In this document: piece after piece, positions 7,368 through 60,630 of the stretch
How positions within the stretch are numbered: position 1 is the stretch's first letter
How the letters are laid out: every line of letters starts with the position of its first letter
Assembly: GCF_964204645.1 (NCBI RefSeq)
Contig: NC_134028.1
Coordinates: forward strand, 14,639,653-14,703,652
Direction: 5' to 3'
Length of the DNA stretch: 64,000 nt
Source: Tubulanus polymorphus
Lineage: Eukaryota > Animalia > Nemertea
The notes under the pieces: generated by a model
What the model was told of the DNA's origin: nothing
What the model saw: only the letters and a program-made list of their open reading frames with translations
Database searches by the model: none
Program-made: the position numbers and the translations under genes

Positions 7368-7630
7368 TTAAATCTAAATATGTTAAATTCTTGATTTTAA
7401 CATAAAAAGTAACGAGTAATTAACAAGTGAAAACTTGCGTCGAGAAAACAGTGAATATCTATATTTATATGTGTTAAATTCTTATTTTAACATAAAATTA
7501 ACGAGTAATTAACGAGTTGAAGAAAATATCAGCCCAATAAGGGTAAAAAAATATTTTAAAGCGTAAGGTTTCAGCGAACTCTAACTCTTTTTCAATTTTT
7601 AACTAATTTTAATAAAAATTTGATATATAA

Positions 7631-8180
7631 ATGTGCTCAAGATTGATTTAAGTTCCCGCAAAAGACATGAATAATAAATATATGAATTCAATATTGTATT
7701 ATTTAACTGTTAACAATAATTTAGCTGATATTTCAGGAGTAAATATACATAAGTATTATAAATCTGAAAATAATGAATTAATTGAAACGTCAGATATATT
7801 TTGCGATAATATAATGCTTTATAAAATCATGTTAGAAAAAGAAATTATTAAAGAAAATAGGCCAACTTTTCTTAATGTTAATCAGAGAAAGATAACCCAT
7901 TATGAAATAGAATGTTTTAATCATGGAAATATTATATTGGATAACTTAGCTATAAAAATTACACGTGTTTTAACAATTCATGATGATAATTCAAAATCAT
8001 ATATCTTAAGTAGAATTAATCAAGAATTAAAATTAACAGATTATAAAGCAGTATTTAAAATTTCATTATGCAATCAAAAAATGGATAATATTGAAAAATT
8101 ATTGAATGAAAAAAATTACAATATATTAGATGTAGATGTTACACAAGATTTTAAAGGATCATTTAATTCAGATGAAATAA
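7631..8180 (+). pseudogene. Polinton-associated hypothetical protein, fused by deletion to PolB
   Basis: ORF 7667-8338 switches at about 8180 to PolB-like sequence (SIPYSFY...FYDELKNEYVKDEDY...IWNHF). Confidence 0.5.
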
Positions 8181-9962
8181 AATCAATTCCATATTCATTT
8201 TATAAATCACATAATGTTTTCAATATTACTGAATTATTAAAAGAACAATTCTATGATGAATTAAAAAATGAATATGTTAAAGATGAAGACTATAATAGAA
8301 CATTGAATATTTGGAATCATTTTAAAATAACAAATTGACAATTAGTAGATTTATATTTAAAATCTGATGTATTATTATTAACTGATATATTCGAAAGGTT
8401 TAGAGATGTAAACCTAAAATATTTTAATATTGATCCTTGCCATTGTTATTCATCACCAGGATTAACTTGGGATTGTGGTTTAAAATTTACAGATATAAAA
8501 ATGTATTTGTTAACAAATATAGATCAATTATTATTATTTGAAAAATCTATAAGAGGAGGAGTTTCAGGTGTATTAGGGGATAGATATTTCAATGTAAATG
8601 ATAACCCTGGATATAAGTTATTATATATAGATGCAAATAATCTATATGCTTGGGCAATGATGGAACCACAGCCATATGGAGTATTTGAAATAAGTGAAGT
8701 TTTACAACATGAAAATAATGATAAATTTGATTGGAAGAAAAGAATCCTAGATATTGCAGATGATTCAGAGACTGGTTACTTCTTTGTTGTAGACTTGGAA
8801 TATCCCGAAGATAAAAAATTTAAATCTAGAAATCTAGCATATTGTCCCGAACATAAAACTGTTACGCATGAAGAATTATCAAATTATCAAAAAAGAATTT
8901 AACCTGAAAATCATATTCATACAGAAAAGTTAATGGTAACTCAGGAAGATAAATATAATTATGTAGTGCATTATAGAATGTTGAAGTTTTATTTGAATCA
9001 AGGAATGGTTCTAAAAAAGTGCATAGATATATTTCATTTAGTCAATCTAAATGGTTAGAAAAATATATAGATTTTAACACCAAACAGAGAACTAAAGCTA
9101 AAACTGATTTTGAGAAAGATTTCTTCAAACTAATGAATAATGCATTCTATGGTAAGACTTGTGAAAATATTAGAAATAGAAATGATATTGAGTAAGTTAG
9201 TAATGGTAAAAGAATTAGACATTTACAAACATATCCTAAGTTCATAGGTAACAGAATATTTGATGATATTTAGCTGCAGTTAAAATGAGGAGAACATCTA
9301 TGAAATTTAATAAACCAATTTATGTTGTAGCTACAGTTTTAGAAATATCGAAGTTATTAATGTATGAATTCTATTATAACGTATTACAACCTCATTTTGG
9401 AGAAAAGCATATAGAAATCTTATATTTTGTTACAGATTCTTACATATTAAAGATAAAAACTAATAACATAACAGATGATTTAAAAACATTAAAACATCAT
9501 TTTGATTTTAGTAATTATCCTAAAGATCATGAATTGTTTAACAATGATAATAAAAAGGTGCCTGGTAAATTCAAAGATGAATTAGAAGGTGAAGAAATGA
9601 TAGAATTTATAGGTATTCGATCTAAAATGTATTCATATAAAACTAAAACTCATGAATCAAAGAAATTGAAAGGAATAACCAAAAGTGTAGTAGAAAAGAA
9701 TATTCATTTCAAAGATTACATCAATTGTTTATTCAATGAAGAAGTTAGAAAACATAAGATGAGATGTTTAAGAACTGAAGATCATGAAATTTTTATTGAA
9801 AAGGTAGAGAAGATAAGTCTAAACCCATTTGATGATAAAAGATATATTTTAGATGATGGTATACACACAGTTAGTTATGGTTGCAATTTAGATGAATACT
9901 TAAGATTTAAAAGAGAAGAAACAAAAGAGAATGAGATAATGAAAAGAATTCTAGCGTGTTAA
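8180..9962 (+). pseudogene. polB: Protein-primed family B DNA polymerase (Polinton type), intein-free allele
   Basis: LYLKSDVLLLTDIFE, SIRGGVS, motif A LYIDANNLYAWAM, motif B FFKLMNNAFYGKT, motif C region YFVTDSY, PGKFKDE, KLKGI, FDDKRY; several stops and frameshifts. Confidence 0.93.
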
Positions 9963-9991
9963 TAAAATTTTAATTAAAATATGTATTATAA

Positions 9992-10345
9992 ATGGAGAGT
10001 AAACAAGCACACAGTGAAAACAACAAATCATTTCTAGATATAATAAAAGATATCACAAATGTCAAATCAGTAGATAATAAATTTAAGAAGTTATCAGAAT
10101 TAACAATTCATAAGAAATATTTAATTACAAATATTGATACAGTTACTAATAGATTTGGTAGTAGATTAGTTATCCACTTTGAATATGAAGGACTGAAAGG
10201 AAATACATATAAATTCAGAACATATTTACCAGATAGATTTAATAGATTATCAAGTGAAGATTTAGAAGAATTAAGTTCAGGTGATTTCTATTTCATATAC
10301 AAAGGTAAGAATGTAAAAGGGCACCATGAAATAGATTTCGAATAA
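9992..10345 (+). CDS. Polinton-associated hypothetical protein (117 aa)
   Basis: Intact ORF; close paralog at 23230-23580. Confidence 0.7.
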   Translation: MESKQAHSENNKSFLDIIKDITNVKSVDNKFKKLSELTIHKKYLITNIDTVTNRFGSRLVIHFEYEGLKGNTYKFRTYLPDRFNRLSSEDLEELSSGDFYFIYKGKNVKGHHEIDFE

Positions 10346-10362
10346 GAAAATATGTAAAATAA

Positions 10363-12361
10363 ATGGTAGAATTAAAAGAATATAGAATATTTGTTGATTC
10401 TAGAAAACTGTTAAATTCTAAATCACATAATTTACTAGTACAATTAGATAGAGGATTTAAGAATTGTGTTGATTTAAAATCAGTAAATGTAAGTTTATGT
10501 AATTCTTTTTAGCCCACTTGGGAATTTAGTCCCAGCGGGCTATTGCGTTCACTTTTCGTCCGTCGTCCGTTCGTCCGTCCGTCCGTAGACGGAATCCAGT
10601 TATTTTGGGAAGTTTTGAAGACGCTTCAAGGTAATGTCTTGATATTTGGGTTACACATGTATCTACCCTAGACACATCTTCAGCCCAAAAACTGGCCCTG
10701 TCAGATTCAAGATGGCCGACTGGCAGCCATTGTTGTTCGCCAAAATCAGCACTTTTTACACATTTTTGAACTTTTTGAGGGAAATTTTGAAGACGCTTTG
10801 ATCAATTACCTTGATCTTTCGGATATATGTGAATTCCCCCAGGGCCCATCAGCATAAAAAAAATTAGGTCGATCGGACTCAAGATGGCCGTCCTATGACC
10901 TTTTTAGTGCCCAAAATGTCCTGTAGCTTCCTACTGGTTTATCATTTCTCATTGCAATTTGTGATGGGTATTCTTTGGAAAGGGATGTTTTATACCTGAG
11001 ACAGGTATTTTTCATCAGCCAATTATGACGCAATTGGCGGCCATCTTGGTGTCAGCAGTACTCGTTCGTAAGTGAAAAAAGTTTTTCACATTATATTGAT
11101 ACCAAAGCGTATTTTGTTACCACAATCATTTAGAAAGTTGTAGCTCATAACGTGTTCTATGATTGTGGTGAGTTTCAAGGTCATTGGTTTTTGTATATGG
11201 CGACCAGTGGGCGTTGAATAATGCAATATCTTAGTATTTCTATATTATATTCGTATCAATGCATATTTTGTAACCACAATCAATTGCAAAGTTGTAGCTC
11301 ATGACATCATCTATAATTGTGGCAAGTTTTAAGGCCATTAGTTATTCTATATGGTCACCAGGGGGCGTTAAATAGTAGAATAACTTAGTATTTCCTTATT
11401 ATATTGGTGCCTAGGCATATTTTGTTACCATGATCAATTACAAAGTTATAGTTCGTGACATTTTCTATGATTGTGGTGAGTTTCAAGGTCATTGGGTTTT
11501 GAATATGGTCACCAGGGGGCGTTGAATAGTAGAATAACTTAGTATTTCCATATTAAAGTGGTAACGAGGCATATTTTGTTATCACAATCAATTACAAAAT
11601 CGTAGCTGCTGACATGTTCTATGATTGTGGTGAGTTTCAAGGTCATTGGATTCTGTATATGGTCACCAGGGGGCGTTGAATATTGAAATTGTTAGATTGT
11701 TGAGCATTTGGAACCACTTCCCAAGTGGGCATGGTGACCCTGGACCCCTAGTTATAATATATGGGATAAAACCTTTGAACATAAAGGGTTTATGATTTAT
11801 ATGAGAAATAAAGATAAATGGTTTCATCTATTTTTAAAACCAGGATTATATAATTTAGAATTATTAGCGCAGGAAATTAATAGAAGAGCTCGGTTGAAAA
11901 TCGGGGGCACTTCTGTATTTGAAATTAAATTTAATAAAATTGATAGTACTAATAAAATAAGAATAAAGATATCTAATGAACAACATAAATTTATGGTAAA
12001 CAAACCAATGGCTAAAATGTTAGGAATTAAACCGCTTACAGTTACTGGAAACGCAGAAGGCATCTCAGATATAATACCTTTTACACACTTTTATATTTAT
12101 TGCAATTTAATCGATCCTACAAAAACTTTCGAAGCAACTAAAGAAACAATTTGTAGTTCTAATATATTAAATATTTTACCGCTAAAAAATGTTAAACAAT
12201 ATGGAACTCAAATAAATTATAATTTAACAGAATGTGATTTCAAACCATGCATTCCTCATTTTAATAATTTTAGATTAGAAATTAGAAATCATAATGGATA
12301 TTTAATTGATTTAGATAATTTTCCTGTGATATATGAATTAGTTATAAGATGTAGAGAATAA
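10363..12361 (+). pseudogene. Putative minor capsid (penton) protein, split by HINE insertion
   Basis: N-terminus MVELKEYRIFVDSR at 10363; resumes after 11751 with KPGLYN, FYIYCNLID and LEIRNHNGYLIDLDNFPVIYELVIR, matching the Polinton minor capsid pattern. Confidence 0.65.
10509..11751 (+). mobile_element. Helentron-associated non-autonomous element (HINE/DINE-1-like), family 1
   Basis: Inserted in a T run; subterminal inverted repeats GCCCACTTGGGAA / TTCCCAAGTGGGC, 5' hairpin, (GTCC)n microsatellite, ~154-bp internal tandem repeats (11100-11690), 3' end ...CTAG-TT; empty site visible in paralog near 23716. Confidence 0.8.
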
Positions 12362-12377
12362 TTTTTTCACTATATAA

Positions 12378-13020
12378 ATGAATATAACTGTTGGGCCGAG
12401 CATATGTTTTGGATTTGATTTTAAACATGAGAAAGAAATAAAATTTAGCATTACTGATGAAATTACACATATTAGAAATATTGCATTTTCTAATTAAACA
12501 ACATTTGAGTATGAAAAAACAATAGATAAAGAAACTTTAAATGTAGAAAAGATTACTAATTTAATTAGAGAATCTTTTAAGATTTTATGAATTAGATGAA
12601 GATTTTATCATTGATGATATTAAAAGAATACTAACTGAAATATATGAAAATGAAACTAATAATACTGTAAATGTTGAAATAATTATAACTAAGATAAATG
12701 AATATTTTGAAGATAGTAATTTTTTTGATAAATAAATGAGTGATAATAAGTGGATAATAACTGGATTATATAATGGAGCATTATTATCAGTTGGAACTGT
12801 TGGTTATTCAATGGTATAAAAAAAAGTATTTAAAATGGGAAGTGTTAATGTTGATAGATTTGATATCAATGATATTTTAAAATTAACATTAGCAGTTACT
12901 TTATCTAATTTAACTATTGATTATTTGGAAAAACAAAAATATATTCCTCCTATATAAATGTATAATTTTTTGCTAAATAAATGGCATCTGCAATTATAAC
13001 GATTATAGGATCGGCAATTG
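12378..13020 (+). pseudogene. Cluster of small Polinton-associated ORFs, including hydrophobic proteins
   Basis: MNITVGPS... (12378), MSDNKWIITGLYNGALLSVG... (12736), MASAIITIIGSAI (12981, truncated); repeated at 24354-26170 and 34800-35846. Confidence 0.65.
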
Positions 13021-13065
13021 CCACTCGCCGTGTCGCGTACTCCCACTAACGGTAAAAGACGCGTC

Positions 13066-13140
13066 CTGTCCTGTGGCAGGGTGGATAAGGTGTTTGACTC
13101 ACAACTGAGAGGTTGAGGGTTCGAATCCTAGTGACACCAT
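13066..13140 (+). mobile_element. tRNA-derived SINE head or tRNA-like pseudogene
   Basis: A-box-like TGGCAGGGTGG and B box GGTTCGAATCC at tRNA spacing; stems imperfect. Confidence 0.45.
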
Positions 13141-23100: not shown

Positions 23101-24996
23101 ACACACCATTATTTACCCATATTCCCAATTACTCCCAATAATATTCATATATATGAATGACATATAAATGAATAAGATATATAAATGAATAACTTCTAAA
23201 ATCAGTTTTAATAAAATGTTATTAAAATTGTGAGCAAACAAGTACACAGTGAGAACAACAAATCATTTCTAGATAGAATAAAAGATACTACAAATGTCAA
23301 ATCAGTAGATTATAAATTTAAGAAGTTAAATGAGTTAACAATTCATAAGAAATATCTTATTACAAATATTGATACAGTTAATAATAGATATGGAGATAAA
23401 TTAGTTATTCACTTAGAATATGAAGGGTTAAAAGGAAATAAATATAAATTCAGAACATATTTACCAGATAGATTTCATAGATTATCAAGTGAAGATTTAA
23501 AAGAATTATGTTTAGGTGATTTCTATTTCATATATAAAGGTAAGAATGAAAAAGGACACCATGATATAGATTTCGAATAAAATATGTAAAATAAATGGAA
23601 GAATTAAAAGAATATAGAATACTTGTTGATTCTAGAAGACTTACAAATTACAAATCTCATAATTTACTAGTGCAATTAGATAGGGAATTTAAGAATTGTG
23701 TAGATTGTAGTTCATGTAATTCTTTTTATAATTTATCGGATAAAAGTCTTGATCATAATTCTTCTATGATTCACGTTAGGAGAAATAATAAATGGTATCA
23801 TCTATTTTTAAGACCAGGATTATATAATTTAGAGACTTTAGCGCAAGAAATTAATAGAAAAGCTAAAACAAAAATGAGCGCAGCTGCTGGATTTGGAATT
23901 AGATTTTTTTAAAGTGATAATAATAATAAATTAAGAACAAAGTTAGGTAATGAAGAACCGCATACATTTATAGTGAGAAAACCATTAGCTAAACTGTTAG
24001 GAATTACACCAAATAAACTTTATTCAAATGTTGATTCTACACCAAATATAATGCCTTTTACACATTTTATATTCATTGCAATTTAACTGATCCTACAAAA
24101 ACATTTGAAGCAACTAAAGATACAATTTGTAATTCTAGAATATTAGATATTTTACCATTAAAAAATGTAAACAATTTGGAACTCAAATAAATTATAATTT
24201 AGCTGAATGTGATTTCAAACCATGCATTCCACATTTTAATAGTTTTAAATTAGAAATAAGAAATCATAATGGATACTTAATTGATTTAAATAATTTTCCT
24301 GTAATTTATGAATTAGTTATAAGATGTAAAGAATAATTTTTTTCACTATATAAATGAATATAACTGTTGGACCGAGTACATGTTTTGGATTTGATTTTAA
24401 ACGTGAGAAAGAAATGAAATTTAACATTAATGATGTAATAACTCATATCAAAAATATTAAATTTTTTAATGAAACAACATTTGACTATGAAACAACAATA
24501 AGTAAGAAACTTTAAATGTAGAAAAGATTACTGATTTAATGAGGGAGTCTTTAAGATTTTATGAACTAGAAGATTTTATTATTGATGATATTGAAAAAAT
24601 AATAACTGAAATATATGAAAATGAAACTAATAATATTATAAATGTTGAAATAATTATAAATAAGATAACTAAATATTTTGAAGATAGTAATTTTTTTTCT
24701 AAATAAATGGCGGATCAGAAGTGGATAATAAATGGATTATATAATGGCGCCTCACTATCAGTTGGAACTGTTGGTTGTACAATGGTATTAAAAAATGTAT
24801 TTTGAATGGGAAGTATTAATGTTGATAGATTTGATATCAATGATATCTTAAAATTAACATTAGCAGTTACTTTATCTAATTTAACTATTGATTATTTAGA
24901 AAAACAAAAATATATTCCTCCTATAAAAATGCGTAATTTTTTTACTAAATAAATTGCATCTGCAATTATAACTATTATAGGATCAGCAATTGTTAA

Positions 24997-25795
24997 AGGC
25001 CGAGGAGCAGTATAAAAGCCCAATCAAAGATGTCAAAGATGGCAGTACCCATGAAGCAAGAGTGCAGTAGAGAGCTCCAACGGTTGAAACTAGAAATCTC
25101 CTATTTTCTCTGTCAGTTATCCGATTTTGACCCTCCTTTTTGTCAGACATATGTATTAATGTGTAATATATTCATTTCTGCAGTCAAAAATGTGTTTTAG
25201 GCCCTCCTCTACGAGAAATTAAGCTTTTTAGTTGGTATTTCCTTCAAAATTTGAATCTTTGAATGACATAGAGGGAGGAGTTATCCGGTGAATTAGTATA
25301 GCTCACAGAGCACAGTAACAGTAATTTGATACCTATAGTCATCAGTATACATAAACAAAACATAGCCTCATTCATAGTACCAAAATTTGGCAACATCAAA
25401 ACTTTTTCTATGGTCAATGGATCAGTCTGAAATTTCGTACACTACTTTAGCTATCAACTATCAATGTTGTGTCCAAATTTCATCGAAATCGGATAAAAAT
25501 TAATGATTTTCAAAAAATTTGAAATGTCTCTAAAATCTTTAATCTTGGCCCTATCTCTACAAAAAAAGATCGCTAGCATCAGATTTTCATTCCCACTATG
25601 ACATTATTTAAAATTAGTTCAGAACTTAATATGAAAACTTTTATGAATTTGTCAAATTTAACTGTGTGTGACCTGCTTTTCTGTTGTGAGCCAACCTCGC
25701 TCACTCTAAACATTATAAACAAGATACTGTAAAAGTAGGACGGCCGATCTCAAGTGTTTGCCACCCGGTTAACTAGCATCCATACTCCTCGGCCT
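24997..25795. mobile_element. Non-autonomous Kolobok-type element
   Basis: TIRs AGGCCGAGGAG / CTCCTCGGCCT with TTAA TSD; splits the MASAIITIIGSAIV|NALAF ORF that is uninterrupted at 35406. Confidence 0.85.
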
Positions 25796-26889
25796 TTAAC
25801 GCTTTAGCATTTACTGGTGGCGGGTATTTATTTAAGCATATTGATAAAAATAGTTCATTAGGAGAACAAAGAAGACATAACTTAGCATTAGAGAAATATT
25901 ATAAAGCTGCAGAAGAATACAGAGAAAAGAGACAAAACTATATGGATTATATCAATAAAGAATTATACAATCAGCAAATTACACATTGAAAATCTCAATC
26001 AGTTGATGAAGATATGAGTTTATATAACGCAGTAACAAATAAAGAAAAATTACATCTATATCAACCTAAATTATCAGATTATTATGTATAATTTATGAAC
26101 AGAAGAAATATGAAATAACTTGGATTTTAGGTGGAACAGTTATTGTTATATTTGTGGCATATAAATTTACTAATTAATTATATATTATTTTTTGTTAAAT
26201 AAATGGGCGATAAAGTTGATAATAATGATATTATTCCTCATGATATAAATAAAACTAAATTAAAAATGTAGTTGGAAAAACAAATATTAGAATTTGAAAA
26301 TGATTTAAAAGAAAAAATATTTAAAAATTAAAATTATATAATATTTTGTTATTAGTGGTTCGGTTACAATTAGTTCTGTTATAACATTTTTAGCAATATT
26401 CAGTCCATTAACTCCTTTAGCTATATCAATTGGTATGTTAGGGTTAAGTTCAAGTGTTTTAACCGTTCAGAATTAAATATAAAAAGTAACAAAGAAAAAA
26501 TAAAATGTAATATAGAAATTAATAAATTAAAAAATACACTAGATTATATAATAAGTTTAAATGGTAATATAACAATTAAAGAACAAGATAAATTATTAAA
26601 AGAATTAATTATTAATTTTTACTATATAAATGGCAGATAGTTTTCCAAAAGCTTTCCAATATAATAAATCATTTAAATATAATATTCCTGCTATAGATTT
26701 TAATAAAAATATCACATATAGAAATGAAGTTTGAAATTCATTAATTAATTTAGATATTTATGTTACTGAAACTAATAATTTTAATATTAAAATGGAAAAT
26801 TAATTTCATGTATATTTAATTAATTTAAAAAAAATGAAAGATGAAAAACAATGGTTATTTAAATCTAATATGAAGTATTGGCAGAACCA

Positions 26890-27442
26890 ATTGGCAGAAT
26901 TTTCATTATTATATGATTTTATTGATAAATTTAAAACTGTTACTATTAGTGCAAATGATGAAATAATCAATGAGAATAATAACTTCCCAAGAAAATCTAT
27001 TAAAGGTATATTGATATTTATTACAATTGCAACATATTCTAATGGTGCAATACAAGTTGATGATTATAATAATCCTAAAATAACAAAAGTAGAAATAACT
27101 ATCGAAGGTATAGCAAATAAAATATTTTGCCAAGGAATGAGAATGATAGATCAGTGGCCAGAAATTAGAAAACATTTTGTGAATGAAAAAAATTTTTTCA
27201 TCTGAAAATTGTTATATTAATCAAATTGATTATTATACCGGTAATAAATACGCATTATGGTTAGATTTTTGAACAACTGAAGATAATTTATTACATGGTT
27301 CTGGGTAGAAATTACAGAACACTAAAGATGGAATACAATTATTCATGAAAAAGGAAGTTTAAATTTCAAAATGCACATTTATATCATATCTGACGCGCAA
27401 TTAAATATTATAAATTCTCAATTGAATAGTGTTATGTATTAA
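26890..27442 (+). pseudogene. Putative major capsid protein, C-terminal part
   Basis: NPKITKVEITIEGIANKIFCQGM...ALWLD...NLLHGSG...NTKDGIQL; paralog of 58005-59472. Confidence 0.6.
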
Positions 27443-27520
27443 AATTTTAATTTTAATAAAAAATTCTATAATAAATGGAAGGAGGAATATATGAAATACA
27501 AAGCCCAAGTGAACTGATAT

Positions 27521-30940: not shown

Positions 30941-31897
30941 ATGGGAGATAGTGAGTACCAGACAGAAAACAATAATGTTAATAAAAAATCAATATTATTG
31001 TGCATATTGTAAAAAATTCATCGATAAATCTAATCATGAAAAAACTGCAAATCATATAAAAAATGTTATAGATTTTGAAACTCCAGAAAATTCCAATGAA
31101 AGAAAAGGACGATTAGAAAATATGAATGTGGATGAAATAAAATGTGAAGTTTGTAACGAATTTGTAACAAAAAGGAATTATAAAAGACATCTCGAATCGC
31201 AAAACACAAACAAAATTTAAGTAATAATGTTTTAGGAACAGATTATTTTGATGATAAACCTCAACAAGTAAAAAAACCAGTTTTAAAAACTAAATCTATT
31301 TCAAATAAACCTTATATGGAAAATGTTAGAAATTATATCAATTCACTAGAAATAAAAGATGTAATTGAAATTTTAGAAACATTACGTAGTAAAATTGGTC
31401 CTGCAGCTATTATATCTAGATTTTTTAAAGGTACCACAATAGAAGATTATAGTAAATTTATTGAAATAATGGAAAAAACAATGGACTTTATTACAGTGAA
31501 TATCCAAAAAATAGTATTTCTGGGAAAGTTAGTTTTATGAAATCAGGAGAAAAATGGATTATAATATTCAAAAACACTCTGAAGAAATAATTTCAAAAAC
31601 ACAAATAAAAGAGAAGTTAGAAAAAATATTCAATGAATTTAAACGAAAAATTGAAGAAAGATATTTTCAGGGTTCTGGCTTATCATTAAATGAAATTATA
31701 TTTTTAGATTTAAATGTTTATAATACAAAAAGGAATAAAGCATCAAAAAGTAAAACAATGTTTAAAAATGATACAAACTTTACAACAGAAAAGGATATTA
31801 AAGCATCATCTTATATTAAATTACCAGTTACAACAAAAGCAGTAATAAATGTTAAAAAATAGGATAATAAATGTTTTCTATGGTCAATTATTAGTTG
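30941..31897 (+). pseudogene. polB: pPolB N-terminal region with C2H2-type Zn fingers
   Basis: YCAYCKK...H...H and KCEVCNE...RHL; FQGSGLSL, ASSYIKLP...KAVINVKN-DNKCFLWSII typical of Polinton PolB N-termini; ends at a deletion junction. Confidence 0.75.
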
Positions 31898-32811
31898 TGG
31901 ATGGAAAAAATAAAAAGAATATTACTAGGCATAAAAGAAATAAGAAAATCTATAGAGTTAGAACTAAATTAGGGTTTGTAGATGTTACAGAAGATCATAG
32001 TTTAATTAAACGAAATGGTGATGAAATAAAACCAACTGATGTAAAAATTAGAGATGAATTATTACACAAAAGATTTTTCCAAAGAATGGATCATATGTCA
32101 TTTGATGAAATAATTGATAATATTTATAATATGGAACCCAAAACATTAGAAGAAAAAGAATATTTTATTAAAGGATTTTTTATGGGTGATGGTTCAGCAG
32201 GTGTGTATAATTATGTTAGTTGCAATAAATATTGTGGGTATTTATGTAATCAAGATTTGAAATTATTAGAAAGAATTAAGAAATATTGTGAAAAAGTTTA
32301 CCCAAATAAAACATTTAGAATCGTGGATATTATGAAATCATCAGCAGTTTATAGAATATACATGTATGTAAATAATCCAAAAGATTTTGCAATGAAATAT
32401 AATGATGAATTCTATATTCCTGCAATAGTTAAAAGTAATACTTCAACAAAAGAAAAGATAGTGCCAGATTGTGTATTAAATGCAAAATATAATTTAAGAA
32501 AATGGTTCTTCATTGGATTCTATGCCGCAGATGGTGCTAAAGATTTACGAGTTCTCCAGTAATAACATTTGCACAAAAAGGAAAAGTTGCTATATCAGGA
32601 TTAAATATATTATGCAATTCATTAGGTTTTAATGTGAATATTGCATTGATTAAGTCTAAACCAAATTGTTTCAATCTAAAGGCATGTAGAAAAAGAATTA
32701 ACAGATGAAGTTAAAGATTTATTTGAAATATATAACCCAACAGATTATGTTTATGATTTATCAACTGAAGGTGGAACATTTAACTGTGGATTTCCATTAA
32801 TTTTTCTCAAT
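31898..32811 (+). mobile_element. Intein with LAGLIDADG homing endonuclease (N-terminus deleted, frameshifted)
   Basis: Block B VDVTEDHSL; block C FIKGFFMGDGS; block E FFIGFYAADG; block H-like QKGKVAISGLNILCNSLGF; blocks F/G DYVYDLSTEGGTFNCGFPLIFLN followed directly by extein TDAYILKIK. Confidence 0.9.
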
Positions 32812-33261
32812 ACGGATGCATACATACTAAAAATCAAGACAAATGACATAAAAAAAGACTTAAAAACATTAAAACATCATTTTGACTTTAGCAATTATCC
32901 AAAAGATCATGAACTATTTAGCAATGATAATACAAAGCAGCCTGGTAAGTTTAAAGATGAACTGGGGGGTGATGAAATGATTGAATTTGTTGGGATAAGA
33001 AGTAAAATGTATAGTTATAGAACAAAAGATCATGAAGCTAAAAAGTTAAAAGGAATAACAAAGCATGTGGTTGATAAACATATACAATGATATAAAGTGT
33101 TTATATAACTCAATTGTAATGAAACATAAAACGAATTGTTTAAGATCAGAAGATCACGAGATGTATATTAATGAAGTTGAAAAAAACTAGCTTAAATCCA
33201 TTCGACGATAAAAGATATATTTTGGGTGATGGAATAAAAACATTACCTTATGGCCATTTAA
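32812..33261 (+). pseudogene. polB: pPolB C-terminal extein
   Basis: TDAYILKIKTNDIKKDLKTLKHHFDFSNYPKDHELF...PGKFKDELGG...KKLKGIT, closely matching ORF 9285-9962 downstream of its TDS. Confidence 0.92.
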
Positions 33262-33435
33262 AAAGAAAATCAATATCATCATACTCGAAATCACTATTCT
33301 TCATTTTCATTTAATTGTTTAGGTTCCTTCATTTCATTTTTCTCATTTAAATAAAGTTCTATATTATTCCACATTTCATCTAGCTCTCTTTGTTTCTTTT
33401 TGTTCGTTAATTCATCTAATGGAATTATAATATAA

Positions 33436-34489: not shown

Positions 34490-36260
34490 TTCACACACTT
34501 TTTTACACACTTTTATATTTATTGCAATTTAATTGATCATACAAAAACATTTGAAGCAACTAAAGGTACAATTTGTAATTCTGGTTTATTAACTATTTAC
34601 CATAAAAAAAATGTTAAACAATTCGGTACACAAATCAATTATAATTTAGCTGAGTGCGATCTTAAGCCTTGTATTTCACAATTTAATAATTTCAGATTAG
34701 AAGTAAGAAATCATAATGGATACTTAATTGATTTAAATAATTTTCCTGTAATTTATGAATTAGTTACAAGATGTAAAGAATAATTTTTTCACTATAAAAA
34801 TGAATATAACTGTTGGACCGAGTATATGTTTTGAATTTGATTTTAAACGTGAGAAAGAAATGAAATTTGATATTAATAATGTAGTTACACATATTAGAAA
34901 TATTGCATTTTCTAATGAAACAACATTTGATTTTGAAAAAACAATAGATAAAGAAACTTTTAATGTAGAAAAGATTACCGATTTAATTAGAGAGTCTTAA
35001 AGATTTTATGAATTAGATGCAAATTTTATCATCGATGATATTAAAAAATAATAATTGAAATATATACAAATGAAACTAGTAATGAAATAAATGTTGAAAT
35101 AATTATAACTAAGTTTACTAAATATTTTGAAGATAGTATTTTTTTTTCTAAAGAAATGGCGGATCAGACGTGGATAATAACTGGTTTATATAATTGAGCA
35201 TTATTATCAGTGGGAAGTGTTGGTTATACGATGGTATTAAAAAAAGTATTTAGAATGGGAAGTATTAATGTTGATAAATTTGATATCAATGATATTTATT
35301 TTGTAATTAACATTAGCAGTAACTTTATCTAATTTAACAATTGATTATTTGGAAAAACAAAAATATATTCCTCCTATATAAATGCATAATATTTTTACTA
35401 AATAAATGGCATCTGCAATTATAACTATTATAGGATCGGCAATTGTTAACGCTTTGGCATTTACTGCTGGTGGATATCTATTTAAACATATTGATAAAAA
35501 TAGTTCAATAGGAGAACAAAGAAGACATAACTTAGCATTAGATAAATACAATAAAGCTGCAGAAGAATATAGAGAAAAGAGGCAAAATTATATGGATTAT
35601 ATCAATAAATAATTATATAATCAGAAAATTACACATAGAGATTTTCAATCAGTTGATGATGCAGTGAGTTTATATCACGCAGTAACAAATAAAGAAAAAT
35701 TACATCTATATAAACCTAAATTATCAGATTATTTTACCCCAAGTAGTGAACAGAAGAAATATGAAATAATTTGGATTTTAGGTGGAACAGTTATTGTATT
35801 ATTTGTTGCTTATAAATTTACTAATGGTAATTTCTTTTCTAAATAAATACATGATAAAGTTGACAATATTGATATTATCCTCATGATATAAATAAAACTA
35901 AATTAAAATTATATTTGGAAAATCAAATATCAGAATTTGAAGATGATTTAAAAGTTAAAAAGAAAAAATATTTAAAAAGTAAAATTATATATTATCTTAT
36001 TATTAGTAGTTCAGTTACAATTAGTTCTGTAATAACATTTCTAGCATTATTCTCACCATTAACACGTTTAGCTATCTCAATTGGAGCTTTAGGTTTAAGT
36101 TCAAGTGTATTAACCGGCATAAGTTCAAAATTAAATATAAAAAGAAAAAATAAAATCTGATATAAAAGAAATTAATAAATACATTAGATTATATAATAAG
36201 TTTAGATGGTAATATAATAGTTGAAGAACAAGATAAATTATCACAAGAACTAATTAATTA
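34490..36260 (+). pseudogene. Third copy of minor capsid C-terminus and small ORF cluster
   Basis: FYIYCNLID...NGYLIDLNNFPVIYEL; MNITVGPS; MASAIITIIGSAIVNALAF; hydrophobic ORF 35915-36160. Confidence 0.75.
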
Positions 36261-36280
36261 TTAATTTTTTTATTATATAA

Positions 36281-37532
36281 ATGGGGTTTCCAAAAGCTTT
36301 CCAATTATAATAAATCAATTAAATGTAATATTCTTGCAATAGATTCCAATAAAAATATTACATATAAAAATTTAATTTTAAATTCATTAATTAATTTAGA
36401 AATTTATGTTACTGAAACGAAGTTTTTTATTTCTAAAATGGAAAATATATTTCATACATATGAAGTCACTTTTACTCGAGAAGAATATCGTATATATAAA
36501 GTAAAATCTAATATGAAATATATGCAAAATCAATTAAATTTTGCTGTTTATTGTGCAACAACAGGGTGTGGTATAGGTTGGAATGATCATTTAAATAACA
36601 AAAATTTGAATTATTCTGATTTAAAATTATTTCATACGTATTTTCAAATCAGAACTATATTAAACGAATTTGAATGCCCTTTGCCTGGATCTAATTATAC
36701 TAAAGAATTGGATAATAATATTAATCTATCTAAGTTTTATAAAATATGTAATGAATTTAATATAGATATTTATTCCGATTTTAGAGCGCATGGTAAATTT
36801 CAAGGTATTGGTGAACAGTATGAAATAAAAAGAATTGATTATATGCATACAATTGGAGCTTATCATAATTATGAAATTGATAATAATAATGGTTGGATTG
36901 ATTTCATTTTAGAAAATAGTGAAGGTTTTACAAAATCAGGTATACAAAGAATAAATCAATCTATAAGAATATATTTAATTTGTATATTAGGTGCACAAGT
37001 TGAAACAAGATCCCCGATAGTTGGAAATGATAGTACTTCATTTGATACACAGAAACAATTTAAAGTTTTATTTGAAGATTCTATTCATAATGATAAGAAT
37101 AGATCGATTCCAGAAAACATTGTAAGATATCAAAATTATTTAGATAAATTACATATTAGATTAAACTATTGTAAAGGCCCTAATTTATTAATTATTTCTA
37201 ATGATTTAGTTTTAAAAATGGGAAATATAATTGGTTATAATAATCTAATTAAAACTGCTACAGTCAATAATAAGTTTCGATTAAATGATATAAATAAAAA
37301 GATTATTACTGTTCCAAAACTAATGGAAGGTGAAAAAATTAAAAAACATATTCAGTCAACAGAAACTAAAACTAAAAATATTAAATTGGATAATGATTCT
37401 AAAATAAAAAAAGATTACAATACTACAGAAAATATAAAAACTGATAATATTCAACATGAAATAATTAAAAGTAATAATGATAATAAATCACATGAAAATA
37501 CTAAATTATCATCGATGATATTACTTGTATAG
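36281..37532 (+). pseudogene. Conserved Polinton-associated protein of unknown function (364-aa open portion 36438-37532)
   Basis: QNQLNFAVYCATTGCG, HTYFQIRTIL..PLPG, SIRIYLICILGAQ..RS; N-terminal paralog at 26630-26890. Confidence 0.65.
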
Positions 37533-38150: not shown

Positions 38151-38270
38151 GGGGTATTATATTCATATTTTAAATTACTTTTCTGATTCTAATTCTGAAA
38201 ACAATTTGAGCCATGCATCTTTCTTGTGATCTTCTTTCACCTAATAGTTTAGTATGATAACCAATACTAT

Positions 38271-48774: not shown

Positions 48775-49179
48775 CTAATACGTATCTAATACATAAATGC
48801 TTAAAATACCGCATTTTATAAATTTATATTCATAAGGAAATTGTAGTCTCAGTAATAATTTTGAACCTTTATTACTTTTAAATTCATTCATATATTCATC
48901 ATGTAATTCAGTAGGTATAATTTGATTTTCTTCCAGAGATTGTTGCATTGATTTTCTATCTTTAATGTAGAATAAAACTAGAAATCTAATGTTTTCTCTA
49001 AAATCTTTAACAATGGAATAATATTTTTTATTTAAAACCCATTTTGTTATCCCAAAATGTCTCCCCCGAGCTAAATAACATAACTCGCTTTCTCTAACTT
49101 TTAAATCATGTAAATTTGCACAATCATCTATAATGAATAATGTATTTGATCCTTTATAAATATCAATTGCAATTTTCAT
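48775..49179 (-). pseudogene. A32/FtsK-like DNA packaging ATPase, C-terminal half
   Basis: Walker B TLFIIDDC and arginine-finger motif GRHFGI; Walker A region deleted. Confidence 0.8.
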
Positions 49180-49189
49180 GGTTTAGTTA

Positions 49190-50371
49190 GTATTATCTTT
49201 TTGATCTTAAATATTTCTTCAGTAAAATTTGGAGTATAACCTTTATAAAATGTTTTTCGATATTTAAATATTCCTATTTTAAATTTAGTTTCTCCAAAAT
49301 TCATCCTCCCCGGCAGGGATTCGAACCTGATGGCATCGAGATTGCCACGGCAAGAAACCCTGCCATAATCGACCGTGTGCGCAGATACATGCGCAGTTCA
49401 GATGATGTGATTTTTAGCCAATCAGAAATCCCGTTTTATTTTAGCCCGGGTTTTCCCATTTATAGTTCTTCCTTGAAATTTGCCTCAACGATTATACAAC
49501 AAGCAATCTGATTGGTGCCGCCAGTTTTCGTTCGGAAAGCTGCGCATGTACCTGCGCACACGGTCTACTGATGCAGGGGTTCGTGCCGTGGCTGAGTGTA
49601 GCGATGCCATCAGGTTCGAGTCCCTGCAGAGGGAGGATGTCCAAAATTATGCGGTACAAACGCGCCATATAAATTATTCCAAACTATTTCTGAATTTTCT
49701 TTCTTTCTAGCTTGTATAGGTTTCATACCAATACTTGAATGTTTAGAATTATTTTAACCTTTCACTAAATCATCTAACACATCGATATATTGATATCTTT
49801 CATTAGCAGTTAAATATTTCCACATTCTAGTTTTAAATGTTTTTTTAAATCTTTCTATAATAGATACTTTTTTATCTGAATGCGTTGAAAAATAATCTAC
49901 ATCGTTTTCGGATGATAATGTTTTAAAATGTTTATTATAAAATTCCTTACCTTCATCAAATTGTATCTTACCTGGAATAGCTTCTTAAAATATTGATTTA
50001 AAAGCATTTGTTACTTCTATACCAGTTTTATTTTTGATTGGAATTGACCATGCGTATCTGCTGAATATATCTATAACATTTAATATCCAAAAATATCCTT
50101 TATTATGTTCTTCTAAGTTCTTCATGTCAATCAAATCTGCTTGCCATTGTTGATCAATAAATGAAACTATAACTTTTCTTGTTAAATAATTTTTATCCAT
50201 TTTCTTATGGATTTGATATGTGGGTTGATTTTGTAACCATAATTTTAATTCATTATATTTTATATTTTCATTATCAGATTTAATTTTATCCCATAATTCT
50301 GAAACACTAGAATATGATACTTCACTCTCTGGGTTATAATATAAATCTCTTAAATATTGTTCTTTTTTCAT
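49190..50371 (-). pseudogene. Retroviral-like (c-)integrase
   Basis: YYNP, QWQADLIDM, VIDIFSRYAW, IQFDEGKEF, IIERF, HSSIGMKP; internal stop at 49985 and MITE insertion. Confidence 0.92.
49302..49639. mobile_element. MITE with 9-bp TSD (Mutator-like) containing an inner inverted-repeat module
   Basis: TIRs CATCCTCCC...GGGATTCGAACCTGATGGCATCG / CGATGCCATCAGGTTCGAGTCCC...GGGAGGATG; TSD TCCAAAATT; inner IR GACCGTGTGCGCAG / CTGCGCACACGGTC. Confidence 0.85.
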
Positions 50372-51713
50372 CTTATTTTAATCCATAAATAATAATTTAG
50401 ATTTAGTTTCAATGATTTTATCATTTGACTTATTTTCTGGTATAATAGGTTTATCATCGGAATCATTATTGTTATTAAATTTAGATTTATATATTACACC
50501 AGAGAATATAATAACTGTGATTAACCCAATTGTAATATATAAGTAATTATTTCTTCCAGTATTAGAAGAATTAGATGGATTATCATTCGAATCAATATCA
50601 GATAATTTCTGTGATTCATTTATATCAGTTAATTACTTTTTCTTAGCTCTTTTTAATTCTGCAGATCTTTTACCCAATTCCCTTGCCCATTTAATTTGTT
50701 TTTCGGATCTAGGTTTCTTCTTAATATCATAACTCATTTATTTTAGTTAATTGTTGTTCTGATTCTCTCTGTTTCGCCGTGTGGGTGTCGTACGGCACCA
50801 TCCGTTTCGTTCTTACCTGATTTATATTCTATAGGTTTGATATTCGAAAATGTTATGACACCAGTAGAGATTAATGTCATAACCGATCCTAATTGAAATG
50901 AAGTGTATCCAACCCATTTTTGTAATTCATTCATAACTAAGTCGTCATTTTTTAAATCAATATATAATTTATTTTCATCGATAATTGACATTAACCGGTT
51001 ACATAATTTTGAATAACATTTGACAATACCATCAAAAATAGAATCATTTATTCTAGCTAATCTAGCTTCTTCATATATTTTGAAATGTTTGATTACTTCA
51101 TCTGGTTTCATATTATCTAATTCTTGAAAAGTTATAATTTTCCCAATAAACTCTTAAGATTTTCCACCAGCAATCAATAGTTCAAGATGGTGCTTACATG
51201 TTAAATAGTATTCAAAATCAATATTATTATCAACTTCAGCACAATTAGTAACAACTGTATCATTATTATCTGTAATACCTAAATCCTCAATTGTCTTTTC
51301 AATATCGGTATTATTCTTATTAGATTTCTTTGGCATTTATATTAGAGAAAAAGCGAAAAAATATTATACTTATTCTTCAAATGAAACTAGTAACTCTTTA
51401 GTTAATACTAGCTTAGTTAAGTTAAAGAATTCTAGTATTAACTAGATTTGAATAGCTATTTGAAGATAAAGAATTTCTATTCAATTCTATTCAAAATATA
51501 AAGTATTCTCTTTTGAAAAGAAATAATCGATTTTGAATACAAATAAAAATAATGGCTAGTTGAAGATATGAAATTTTTAATATATTTTATTTAAATTTGG
51601 ATTTAGATTATCTCACTTCTTTGGTCTATCTATAGGAGCAATTACTATAACTGTCCAGATAAGTCATTTCGGATCCTCGATAATAAATCATATTCCATAA
51701 TTGTATAAATCTT

Positions 51714-52315
51714 TCAGCTTTGATTATTTGATAATTCATTATCAATTTTATCACGTTTAATTCTATTTTCTATTTTCGATAAAGGTTGAATATTCTTCCA
51801 ATTACATATTGTTTTTATTTCAGATTCATTTTCTATTGATGATAATGGGATAACATGATCTAACTCCCAATATTCTCCATGATTCTCAAATTTCATGTTA
51901 TTATCGAACTGATATTCTATCCATGCATAAAAAAAGTCTATAGAACACCCTAAATAACCAATTGATCTATCAGATTTTATATAATTTTTGAAAACTCTGT
52001 TCAAACTAGTTCTGTTAGTATGCTTTAATTTGAATAATGGATCTGAATTATATTTTACTTTTTGGTAATTATTGATATGTTCACGGTTATCTTTTATCCA
52101 TTCTCTCATGTATTCTGGGTTATTTTCTCGATATAGTGCATTATTTTGTTTCCAACATGTTTTACAAATATTTTGTAAACCATCTTTGTAAAACTTTTGT
52201 TTATAATATTCTGAAGATTGTTTATTTATTCACACTTAGAACATATGTTATGATAAATATTTATAACACCAGCGTTATTTGTAATATTAATGATTTGTGG
52301 CTGTTTACTTTCCAT
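51714..52315 (-). pseudogene. HNH endonuclease (giant-virus/phage type)
   Basis: YLGCSIDFF..WIEYQF...M..ENHGEYWELDHVIPLS...NWKNIQPL...EN..K; N-terminal CxxC pairs; start TAAATG at 52315. Confidence 0.75.
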
Positions 52316-53412: not shown

Positions 53413-53577
53413 GGGATCACTCATTTATTACGTTCGCATAAAATTTGAAATTTCCAACCCCCCTCCCCCTCTGTACGCAAAATCGGCCATTTTTTCATAT
53501 ACATTAAGCATTACAATACGCAATTGCACTGACCCCCTCCCCCTCCCCTAATGCGTACGTAATGAATGAATGACCCC
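53413..53577. mobile_element. Tourist-like (PIF/Harbinger) MITE
   Basis: TIRs GGGATCACTCATTTATTACGT / ACGTAATGAATGAATGACCCC; TSD TTA. Confidence 0.8.
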
Positions 53578-53898: not shown

Positions 53899-54022
53899 AG
53901 TAATAGGGAATATGTTGTTTCATATCAAAGGTTGAAGGGGCGAGTGAGTAAAAAATGAAATTTCATTTTTTATGAGCTCGACCCTTCGACCTTTGGTATG
54001 AAACAACATATTCCCTATTACT
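53899..54022. repeat. ~124-bp imperfect palindrome related to 7246-7367
   Basis: AGTAATAGGGAATATGTTGTTTCATATCAAAGGT ... ACCTTTGGTATGAAACAACATATTCCCTATTACT; half copy again at about 54740-54797. Confidence 0.9.
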
Positions 54023-56141: not shown

Positions 56142-57269
56142 TTAAGTAATATTTCATTGCTATAATCACTTATCATGTCTTAATAAACATATGCTATATA
56201 AATTGTATTTTATTTGAAGAGTTTGCTGTAATTTGAGTTCGTTTCTCATTTTTTTTAGTTTTAGACCCCCACGTACGAACGTTGCCAACACCATCAGGAA
56301 GTGCGTTACATATGGAAGCAGTGCTTGAAATATTTTCCAAAAAAAACCCCAAGAACCATATCTATTAAATGAGTAGCATCTTTTATTCGTGTTTTTATGA
56401 ATATTTCCTTCATCTGAATCTGCCATCAAAGTGAACAAGTTATATTAAAAAATTATCAGTCGCGACTGATAGCATATGGGTATGCAACAATGTGTCCAAT
56501 TCATGTAGCATAAATTTTCTTCATGTTGACGAAGTCATTTCAAAGTCAATTAATAACTGTTCAAAATTTGGTGTACATGTGAGTCTATGTTGCACTGATC
56601 CCAGTTCAATCATATTCCCATTAGTGCGGTCATGGTTGATTTTAACGGCTACCAATTCCTGTAAAATGAAGGATTAAAAGGAAAAATTAAATCTCAATGG
56701 CCATTCCAAGTTCACATGAGTACAAATGAGAGTGAACCATGGAGCTCACAAGCAACTGAGTCAATTTCCACTGAGTCATAGAAAAACTCGAATGACTTCA
56801 GGTGAAGAGAAGCGAACACGAAAATAGATAGGAGCCACAGTTTTTCTTAAAATAATAAAGACATTAAACAAGAAAAAGTTCCTTCAAATGACAATCTACT
56901 ACGATCATCCGATAAAGTTTATTGCCACCTGGCTCTTTGAAAAGACAAGGAACCAGTCTTGCAATTCAATTCAATTGAGAATTTATTTTACAGAAAAGCG
57001 GTTTTTAAGTTTAAGATATCTAAACTGATAAATACAAATGTTCATACAGAGATTTTCAAATTGCCGCTATTGCAAGCACCCAATGAAAGTAAAAGAAAAT
57101 TAAAATAAGTTTTCAAAAATGTGAAACTAAATGTTTTATTGTGAAATTTTAATTGTGTCAATAAAGAACGAATTGAATTGTCGACAGCAGTATGCCGCGT
57201 ATGAATACCAATTTCAAGCCTGTTCACGCACGCTCAACCAAGGCGGTTTAAATTTAGGTTCACCAAAAT

Positions 57270-57975
57270 CATCTACAAGAAATGCTCCATATAAATTATT
57301 CCAAACAATCTCGGCATTTTCAGGTTTTCTATTCCAATAGATGAATGGTTAGAATTATTATAGTCTTTTATTAATTTTGATAAAACATCAATCCATTTAA
57401 AAGTATTATTTGCTGTAAAATTTTTCCACATTCTTGTTCTTAAATTACTATTAGATCTTTCAACAACTGCTGCTTTGTTATTCGATTTTGAACTAATGAA
57501 TTATCAAATTCTTTCTATTATCACTTTTGTATTTGTTCAGGTTTCACTGAACCTGAAAGAAATTTTCTTAAAATTTTTGATGTTTGTACAGCATCTTTTC
57601 TGGATAGTGGGAAGCTCCATACATAACGACTAAAAATATCAATTATATTTAATATCCACCAATTATCATAAGTTTTAAGATTTTTAATATCAATTAAATC
57701 TCCCTGCTATTGTTGATGTATATAACTTACCACAGTTTTACGGGTTTTATATTTTCTTTCAATTTTTTTAAGTGCTGTATATGTTGGTTGTTCTAATATA
57801 AATTTATTTATATCTTTATGTTTAACTAAATTGTGTGGGATTATCTTATTTAATCTATCTTGTTTAATTTGTCGCCAAATATTTTCACAGAAGAAAAGAC
57901 AACCGAACTCTCAGGATTATGATTTAAATTTCTTTAATATTGTTCTTTAGGATTCGGAGATTATTTATTCCCCAT
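57270..57975 (-). pseudogene. Second c-integrase, heavily degenerate
   Basis: QGDLIDIKNL..WILNIIDIFSRYVWSFPL, KAAVVERS...RMWK. Confidence 0.8.
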
Positions 57976-58004
57976 TTAGATATCATCAATATTAACTATA
58001 TATT

Positions 58005-59472
58005 TTAATTTTGAATACTATCTAATTGAGAATCTTTTATATTCAATTGCGCATCAGAAATAATACAAATATGCATTTTATAATTGAGACCTCCTTTTTT
58101 CTTTTTAATGAATAATTGTATTCCATCTTTTGTATTTTGTAATTTTTTTCCAGAACCATGTAATAAGTTATTTTCAGTGGTTCTTAAATCTATCCATAAT
58201 GCAAATTTATCACCAGTATAATAATCAATTTGATTAATATTAAAATCTTCAGCTAATTTATTTTTTTCATTCATGATATATTTTTTTATTTCTACCAATT
58301 GATCTATCATTCTCATTCCTTGACAAAATATTTTAATTTGCTGCACCTTCAATTGTTATTTTCTTACTTTGATATTTCAGGATTATAATAGTTATCAACT
58401 TTTATTGCACCATTAGAATATATTGTGGTAAAAAATATTAATATACCTTTAAAAGATCTCCTTGGAAAATTGATATTTCCATTTATTATTTCATCACTTG
58501 CATTAATAGTTACAGTTTTAAATTTATCTATATAATCATATAATAATGAAAATTCTTGATTATATCGTGTTTGAATTATGTGAGCAATATTTTCAACAGT
58601 TACTGCATCATATTCTTAAAATATATTTGATCATTTATAACCCATATCTTTATTAACACTAGATAAAAAAATCTAATTTAGGCTAAAAAAAATTGATACC
58701 TTGTTTCTCCGCTCTGCTGAGCTTAAATGTTGACCCGGCCGGCCGCCTATCTACCCTATACATTACTTTTTTTTAAATCGTGATCAATTTTACCATAACA
58801 GACCCGGTCGCTATAGAAATGAACTGTTTATAAATTTTATCATATTTTACAAAAATGACCCGGCCGCTGCGGAGAAACATGGTATCATTTTTGTTTAGCC
58901 TTAGAGGTGCAAAAGTTATTTCAAATATAATATCTTCTTGAATTGCATACTTACATAAAGGTGCATTATCAGTTATTAATTTAAAATCTAATGGAATTTT
59001 ATATTTACTACATAAATATTTTTCATTAAATAATCTACAGCATTAGTTACTATTGCGTTATTAGCTTTGATCTCAATTTATTTTGGTTTTTTGATGGGAT
59101 ACCTTGAAATATCATATTATTTCTATTCCCTTTTGTTAACCATAAATCTTTATAATGTGCAAATAAATTATAATCATCTAATGTAAACAGTTTCTGGACC
59201 AAATTCTATACTTAATTTCTTAATTAAATTCTACCAACATTATCTACAACATAATTATTATCATGACCAGTTACTTCTATATTAGCTGCTAAATAAATAC
59301 TATTTAAAACATAAAAAGTATTTTGATTTAATTTCGGAATTCTAACATATACAGTTTCATTAGGATTAATATTAGAAGGATTATGTGTAATTATGTGATG
59401 AGATCTTTCTGCTTTAATTGCATTAGAAATTCTAGAATTATTTGAAGGATCTATATATTTTCCATTCACCAT
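58005..59472 (-). pseudogene. Putative major capsid protein
   Basis: N-terminus GKYIDP..R...IKAER..IITHNPSNINPNETVYVRIPKL; C-terminus FALWIDLRT..NLLHGSG..LQNTKDGIQL; about 420 codons after removing the MITE; capsid assignment inferred from size and context. Confidence 0.6.
58681..58900. mobile_element. PIF/Harbinger-type MITE
   Basis: TIRs GGCTAAAAAAAATTGATACCTTGTTTCTCCGC / GCGGAGAAACATGGTATCATTTTTGTTTAGCC; TSD TTA; second copy from about 63884. Confidence 0.88.
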
Positions 59473-60630
59473 TCATTAAGAAAAAAAATTACTTTATTTA
59501 TTTTTTATCATATTTACTTATCCAAAGATTATTGCACTTAAAACTGTAATTAAAAATATTATTATATTATCAGCAGCAAAACTAATAATACTTCCAGCAG
59601 ATTTTAAAATAAAACTAACAATTAGCGCTATAACTCCAGGTAAAGTTGCATCAGATTTTTTAGATACTTCCCGTATGTTGTATAGAATCATTATCATTCA
59701 GTGGTTAATCAGGTGGTTTAGGATTTGGTGTAGATTTTAAAGAATTTGATATAGCTAAACCAATTGTTTTAAATACCATAGTTACAGCTGTTAAAATTGA
59801 AAGAATTGTTATACCTTCTAATTTAGATAATGATCTTATTCTATCTTTTAATGATATTTGAGAATTTGGTTTTATATAATAAATCTTTAAAAATAACTTT
59901 TAATCCTTAATCTTTTTCTTCCTTCTGAAATTCTATATTATATTTTTAAATCATCAATTTCTTTTTCTAAATATGCATTTCTTTTTCAATTTCTTCAATA
60001 ACTTAATTATCTCTTTCTAATTTTAATTGTTCTAATTCTTGGTTAAATTTAGATAATTCATCTTCTAAAGTTTTAATTTTATGATCTCTAATCAGTTTAT
60101 TGTGCGCAATTTTATCAGCTTCATTTCTTACACTTATTATTATTTCTCTAATTGCTTTACCAGAAAATATATCTAATCTTCTAATTCTTGATCTGTTGCA
60201 TCATGTAATCCATTTAGAAAAAGTTTTTCAATTGGCACTTTATTTGATTCAGGTTTATTAGTTTTAGAGCTTATATTCTGGTTAGAAGTTGTTTCGGTTT
60301 CTAAATTTTCATTATTTGAAATAATTCATCAATTCTTTGTTTGAATACAATATTATTTTGGTCTAATTCTTGTTTTGTAACATCAGTTATAACATCACTA
60401 TAAATTATTCTTTTAATTCTAGATGGTTCTGAATTACTCAAAGTTGATTCTGCTAATATCTTATTTTGATTTTCATAAGAGATATTAATATAATAATTAT
60501 CTTCCAAACGATAATAATATTCACCATCAAAAAATTTCAATTGTGGTGCTAAATATTGCGCACCTATATCATTTATATTATACCCAGATTTTTCAAATAT
60601 AGGTCTAAAATGATGAATTAATTCATTATA

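Follow-up and report, generated by a model that had tools for sequence, protein, structure and literature searches.

Which transcription machinery the genes of an integrated virus-like element were built for is the question raised by a stretch of 64,000 nucleotides from the nemertean Tubulanus polymorphus (NCBI RefSeq assembly GCF_964204645.1, contig NC_134028.1, positions 14,639,653 to 14,703,652 of the forward strand), called here the window. The AT-rich blocks of the window are five partial, decayed copies from one family of Polinton-like elements, disrupted by frameshifts and stops as well as by deletions and insertions. A preliminary description had noticed that the genes start at TAAATG, as poxvirus late genes do, and had proposed a virophage-like element relying on a cytoplasmic helper virus and stored in the animal germline, potentially as antiviral defence. 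It was found that the placing of TAA directly before the ATG is a real and strong feature of the element, and that this motif, the spacing of the T-run upstream of it, its conservation in two lineages of relatives and the accompanying gene set are all observed; a cytoplasmic helper virus, of either pox or asfar type, probably provided the RNA polymerase that transcribed the element. The proposed antiviral storage found no support, since the copies in the window are broken and cannot make particles.

All 19 ATGs that the preliminary description had named do lie in TAAATG, with many of them opening short frames, the copies being pseudogenes. For counting, the gene starts were called by homology to intact relatives, so that the motif played no part in their choice, with the exception of the start at 52315, called from its open reading frame (ORF) alone; the sites 7631 and 27475, which open frames of 6 and 15 codons and have no orthologue evidence, were left out, and 50619 was rejected as the integrase start, being out of frame within the upstream gene. 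The motif TAAATG was present at 17 of the 21 assigned starts with an intact ATG, against 54 of the 813 ATGs elsewhere in the element DNA (binomial p 4e-17), which confirms the enrichment over the AT background. The four starts without it (34800, 35156, 50371 and 59472) were absent from the earlier list, and at three more starts, near 23227, 24953 and 35846, the ATG itself has decayed.

The relatives of the element were collected by a scan of metagenome contigs, in which 80 of 281 related loci were kept (L031 and L036 being dropped as near-duplicates), and the starts were scored as first-ATG ORFs of 13 clustered families under length filters, some loci having no scorable start. Two lineages, each well supported in quick single-marker trees, share the motif: lineage A (L001-L004), the nearest to the window, at 19 of 22 starts versus 60 of 753 other ATGs, and lineage B (13 loci of 30-39% GC) at 45 of 47 starts versus 77 of 1768, or at 35 of 37 once one gene, with a start overlapping the ATPase, is removed. 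In the hand-checked intact locus L002 of lineage A, all 15 genes start at TAAATG, compared with 22 of the 389 other ATGs. The motif occurs at only 4 of 41 starts in twelve other loci below 44% GC and at 1 of 163 in the high-GC loci, and in both of these motif-poor groups A is favoured at position -3 (61% and 57%, respectively). No relatives were found in IMG/VR or GTDB. The explanation of TAAATG as a chance outcome of AT-richness and paralogy has a negligible probability: the element DNA in the window is indeed about 76% AT (23.6% GC), and several window starts are paralogous and thus not independent, as the preliminary description had itself cautioned, but 12 of the 13 non-redundant gene families still carry the motif (p 9e-14), and relatives with a GC content similar to that of lineage B mostly lack it.

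The architecture upstream of the motif resembles that of a vaccinia late promoter, in which TAAAT(G) overlaps the start codon and is preceded, at a distance of 10 nt, by a conserved T (PMC11980589, PMC5294985). The frequency of T upstream of the starts peaks at -15 to -12, and in the window T occupies -13, i.e., 10 nt upstream of TAAAT, at 14 of 17 starts versus 19 of 54 background TAAATG sites (p 8e-4). The same position is T in 14 of 15 genes of L002, while in lineage B the peak is at -14 (40/45), with T at -13 in 27/45. Thus, both sequence traits of the poxvirus late promoter, the TAAAT plus G overlapping the start codon and the T element 10 nt upstream, are found in the element; the stretch 12362..12380 on the + strand gives an example of the bipartite signal, with a T-run at about -16 to -11, a short spacer and TAAATG. 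The T-runs at the starts had been noticed before and stand; given their fixed spacing, they fit the upstream T element of a late promoter better than a TTTTTNT early terminator. In the coding strands of lineage A, TTTTTNT is depleted (6 versus 13 expected), but not specifically, since TTTATT is depleted there as well (22 versus 39). A depletion test on splice donors did not tell the groups apart. Among other readings of the motif, a trans-splice acceptor was ruled out because in neither lineage A nor lineage B does an AG precede the ATG, and a TATA box was ruled out by its position, because a box abutting the ATG would place the start of RNA polymerase II about 25-30 nt downstream. A split into intermediate (A-rich) and late (T-rich) promoters was also rejected, as it concerned few genes only and was inconsistent across orthologues.

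The hexamer is literally a stop codon followed by a start codon, and it might therefore be a translation signal, serving stop-start reinitiation on a polycistronic mRNA or guarding the start by an in-frame stop. Of 64 TAA starts, nine do follow an upstream ORF at a distance of 0-3 nt; the other 55 do not abut one, and in each of the 10 head-to-head pairs that were found, whose starts are separated by -21 to +38 bp, both genes carry TAAATG, which argues against stop-start coupling. As the translational explanation also leaves the fixed spacing of the T-run and the non-use of TAG and TGA without a reason, we regard it as most improbable. The starts carry T at -3, which is anti-Kozak, and this makes sense if polymerase slippage would add a poly(A) leader to the transcript, as is described for vaccinia and the yeast virus-like elements (PMC6211774). 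The promoter-like reading of the motif proposed earlier is upheld by its conservation in intact relatives, the vaccinia-late spacing of the T-run, the T at -3, the head-to-head pairs and the VLTF3-like gene of the element, all of them consistent with post-replicative transcription of a viral kind.

The copies and their recognisable parts are the following:
7631..13025, + strand: copy 1, decayed, recognised by tblastn of intact relatives, with a weak match to PF03175
8183-9962, + strand: in copy 1, the C-terminal half of pPolB, to which an unassigned ORF is joined by a deletion
9992, 10363, 12378, 12736 and 12981, + strand: in copy 1, starts of five small or structural-module genes, all five at TAAATG
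about 10510-11750: insertion interrupting copy 1
23215..27500, + strand: copy 2, decayed, with the gene order of copy 1 and the direct repeats D7 and D9-D13
23595, 24354, 24707, 26203 and 26630: gene starts of copy 2, with decayed starts near 23227 and 24953
26900-27439, + strand: major-capsid fragment at the end of copy 2
30941..33263, + strand: pPolB gene of copy 3, starting at 30941 with TAAATG, with a large internal deletion
31918..32811, + strand: partial LAGLIDADG intein of copy 3, at polymerase motif C, ending N/TDA
33336..34442, - strand: broken gene for a zinc-finger and VLTF3-like (poxvirus A2-type) late transcription factor
34502..37532, + strand: structural module of copy 3, with starts at 34800 (AAAATG), 35156 (GAAATG), 35406 and 36281 (both TAAATG)
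36281-37532, + strand: conserved 442-aa protein within the structural module of copy 3
48775..52315, - strand: copy 4, decayed, with an HNH-like ORF (start 52315) and genes at 51336 and 50737
50371, - strand: start (AAGATG) of the rve integrase of copy 4, which also has an A32-like ATPase fragment
57247..60229, - strand: copy 5, decayed, with a fragment of a 485-aa family and an integrase starting at 57975 with TAAATG
59472-58005, - strand: double jelly-roll major capsid gene of copy 5, starting with TGAATG, with several stops

The ORF at 7667 in copy 1 had 0 Atlas matches. The 442-aa protein of copy 3 is helical, with a C-terminal hydrophobic segment and at least 145 relatives, and gave no Pfam match and, from a low-confidence model, no fold match. 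The gaps between genes, described before as only about 15-30 bp, measure 5-29 bp at the five window junctions covered; in the intact L002 they extend from -80 to 325 bp.

The genes of the element comprise pPolB, an rve integrase, an A32-like packaging ATPase, a double jelly-roll capsid and the VLTF3-like factor. The pPolB trait of Maverick-Polintons is present as a weak PF03175 match and 56-75% identity of core segments to the PF03175 protein P0273; for the copy 3 gene the identity to the intact P0273 is 56-63% in C-terminal segments and 39% in the N-terminal one. Two further Maverick-Polinton traits, the rve integrase and the A32-like ATPase, are both present. The L002 capsid orthologue, 50-78% identical to the window fragments, was modelled as a double jelly-roll (mean pLDDT 70) and matches double jelly-roll capsids with E 1e-14 to 1e-17, the best matches being of the type of nucleocytoplasmic large DNA viruses (NCLDV). 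A Ulp1-type maturation cysteine protease gave no match in the window fragments or the 16 L002 ORFs, neither of them a complete element, and no terminal inverted repeats or target-site duplication were seen, among the repeats listed, bracketing any of the copies, which are truncated. Related side observations are a deoxynucleoside kinase gene (PF01712) with a TAAATG start at 10340-10981 (-) of L002 and the P0207 cluster of capsid homologues, 55% identical to that of L002, filed as Bartonella proteins on contigs of 0.5-1.6 kb and probably representing contamination of those assemblies by the host animal.

The gene at 33336-34442 is orthologous to the protein P0364 (tblastn E 2e-48), and its intact L002 orthologue starts at TAAATG. 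Residues 322-522 of P0364, compared by hhalign with a 45-sequence VLTF3 profile, aligned over 130 columns with an HH probability of only 18%, although with the first rank by score against 230 controls (150 natural and 80 shuffled), and 27 of their 30 Atlas matches are Pox_VLTF3 clusters (score 0.93). The likeness was missed by Pfam alone and by standard hmmsearch with full-length P0364, and is weak in single-sequence comparison (E 0.18); no orthologue was seen in the lineage B loci, which are partial. VLTF3 is already known in polintoviruses (PMC11131425). The presence of such a gene also permits the element to be seen as an autonomous nuclear virus, in which its own VLTF3-like factor would make the RNA polymerase II of the host use a viral late-type promoter that leaves hardly any 5' untranslated region. 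The chromodomain integrase, which implies access to the nucleus, speaks for this, as do the mriyaviruses, inferred nuclear viruses that have VLTF3 but lack an RNA polymerase (PMC11253617). We consider it unlikely, however, because without an added poly(A) leader the T at -3 runs against the Kozak context, slippage being a trait of the polymerases of poxviruses and yeast virus-like elements, because in vaccinia the viral polymerase itself reads the TAAA initiator, because AATAAA occurs 4.9 times per kb in the lineage A coding strands, and because the lineage B loci, as far as they extend, show no VLTF3 orthologue.

RNA polymerase subunits, the pox type included, gave no match in the window fragments or the L002 ORFs scanned. 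The polymerase might be supplied by a sister element or a cytoplasmic linear plasmid rather than by a large helper virus, as in the pGKL virus-like elements of yeast, whose own polymerase works with a TAAAN initiator and makes poly(A) leaders (PMC6211774). This source is very unlikely, given the failure to find any such subunit in the material scanned, a promoter profile in which the T-run is the sole conserved motif upstream, and the retention of capsid and packaging genes by the element.

As to the kind of helper virus, a motif scan of IMG/VR (120 loci, 76 of them with at least 4 ORFs) gave no locus with more than 45% TAAATG starts, the top loci including a phage-like contig (4/9), an orthopoxvirus stretch (L113, 4/11) and the asfar-like giant virus G001 (4/10). 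An unselected 20 kb of G001 (L140/L203) has TAAATG at 8 of 30 ORF starts versus 36 of 865 ATGs; its capping enzyme and polymerase have 7d8u and 9l8u/8ywg as best PDB matches, of which 7d8u and 8ywg we take to be proteins of African swine fever virus (ASFV). In other giant-virus loci the motif is at 7/83 and 4/30 starts. The promoter form of the element matches the orthopoxvirus stretch and partially matches G001. The motif is therefore not exclusive to poxviruses, and the helper need not be one; egoviruses are described as a further related group (bioRxiv 2024.03.23.586382).

Taken together, the explanation that we hold rather probable is that of a virophage-like element whose genes are read by the polymerase of a pox- or asfar-type helper in the cytoplasm. 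Transcription would start inside TAAAT, and a 5' poly(A) leader made by polymerase slippage would replace the unfavourable T at -3; the VLTF3-like protein of the element may help to recruit the helper polymerase, pPolB would replicate the genome in the factory of the helper, and the integrase would insert it into the chromosomes of the host, with the inserted copies then decaying. There are precedents in the virophages, which use the promoters of their helpers (bioRxiv 2022.07.28.501842), and in the Polinton-like viruses (PLVs) present in entomopoxvirus occlusion bodies. Several points weigh against the helper explanation. Neither the helper virus nor a transcript start was observed, a cytoplasmic polymerase would have to reach integrated copies in the nucleus, and the mriyaviruses mentioned above are an example of VLTF3 in viruses inferred to be nuclear. 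AATAAA is not depleted in any group, lineage A included, so that it gives no means of telling transcription in the nucleus from that in the cytoplasm. The sole named relative of the copy 3 intein is that of the mimivirus PolB (41%), an enzyme of neither pox nor asfar origin. Lineages A and B do not form one clade (p-AU 0.00085 in a single-marker tree, for a group named after the first tree), and their sister lineages use instead a TATA within 12 nt of the ATG, at 16 of 19 starts versus 112 of 1088.

Lineages A and B lie in a larger clade (support 99) together with the loci having TATA near the ATG, and TATA is reported as the late initiator of ASFV (PMC7163114). It is possible, although we put it at somewhat less than even, that the Polinton-like viruses of a widespread clade, endogenised in animals, are virophages of Pokkesviricetes with their own late transcription factor, whose initiator (pox-like TAAAT or asfar-like TATA) was switched along with the helper. 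The loci of the TATA type are L006, L012, L034, L041, L047 and L058, with the TATA often after a T-run and resembling the ASFV late promoter; in L006 it is within 12 nt of the ATG at 6 of 8 starts versus 21 of 404 ATGs, and in L005, TAAAA directly precedes the ATG at 3 gene starts.

The intein at motif C is allelic with the mimivirus PolB intein, and is present in copy 3 and absent from copy 1. It groups with the inteins of three intact pPolBs in a single clade (support 99), which is placed among 33 inteins of RNA-primed PolBs, those of giant-virus type, and this placement counts in favour of the helper explanation. Related inteins occur in two pPolB types (P0273/P0274 and P0275), which suggests homing between Polinton groups; intein-like insertions in polinton pPolBs are on record (PMC11071308).

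Among known systems, the entomopoxvirus-associated PLVs (PMC11296320) are likewise Polinton-like viruses of animals, proposed as poxvirus parasites and in some cases host-integrated, for which the main text and one supplement of Barth et al. 2024 contain no promoter analysis. Mavirus, Sputnik and Gezel-14T (PgVV) share a promoter motif with their helpers, late in the first two and early in PgVV, and mavirus integrates via an rve integrase such as the element encodes (PMC8502044); they differ in having protist hosts, Mimiviridae helpers and other motifs, and the dependence on a helper, shown for them, is only inferred here. With Maverick-Polintons and adintoviruses (PMC8502044, PMC11071308) the element has in common pPolB, the rve integrase, the A32 ATPase, the double jelly-roll capsid and many copies, while it differs by the Ulp1-type protease, not found in the material scanned, and by a capsid model closest to the NCLDV type. 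It shares with vaccinia late genes the TAAAT(G) over the start codon and the T element 10 nt upstream, but here the signal precedes almost every gene, and the element is a small one that integrates. The Pacmanvirus transpoviron (PMC11788076) is also a small element with an asfarvirus-type late promoter, but it is a capsid-less 7-kb plasmid of amoebae with a TATATA motif. A literature search on the promoters of Polintons, Mavericks and adintoviruses found, as judged from listings, no report of a TAAATG signature, and the word promoter is absent from the main texts of PMC8502044, PMC11131425 and bioRxiv 2026.06.19.733378. The element may belong to animal PLVs outside the main groups. A promoter signature readable from sequence would allow cheap sorting of such elements and prediction of the helper type, making helper dependence directly testable, and virophage biology would extend from protists to animal genomes more widely than the insect PLVs of occlusion bodies. 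If the clade of Pokkesviricetes virophages is true, the sequence around such start codons in the genomes of animals would preserve, like fossils, traces of pox- and asfar-like viruses of invertebrates that are yet to be discovered.

Contigs of three sequencing runs of one study span all of copy 3, with 5299 records at 80-99+% identity, which fits a diverged family of many copies, while the runs may share the source of the window itself. The short stretch at 53818-53914 matches the start region of copy 2, although on the opposite strand, and is a possible sixth remnant of the element. The neighbouring DNA-transposon genes, described before as spliced and starting at AAAATG, do have intron-like GT..AG breaks, which points to an animal host, but only one AAAATG start is plausible by eye, which makes a thin control. 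A long near-perfect inverted repeat at 15973-17142 (arms of about 520 bp in total) lies directly upstream of the Harbinger-type transposase. Arrays of 31-bp tandem repeats occupy 38244-40737, and the 155-bp repeat block within them, at 38748-39212, has inverted copies inside copy 1 at 11074-11689.

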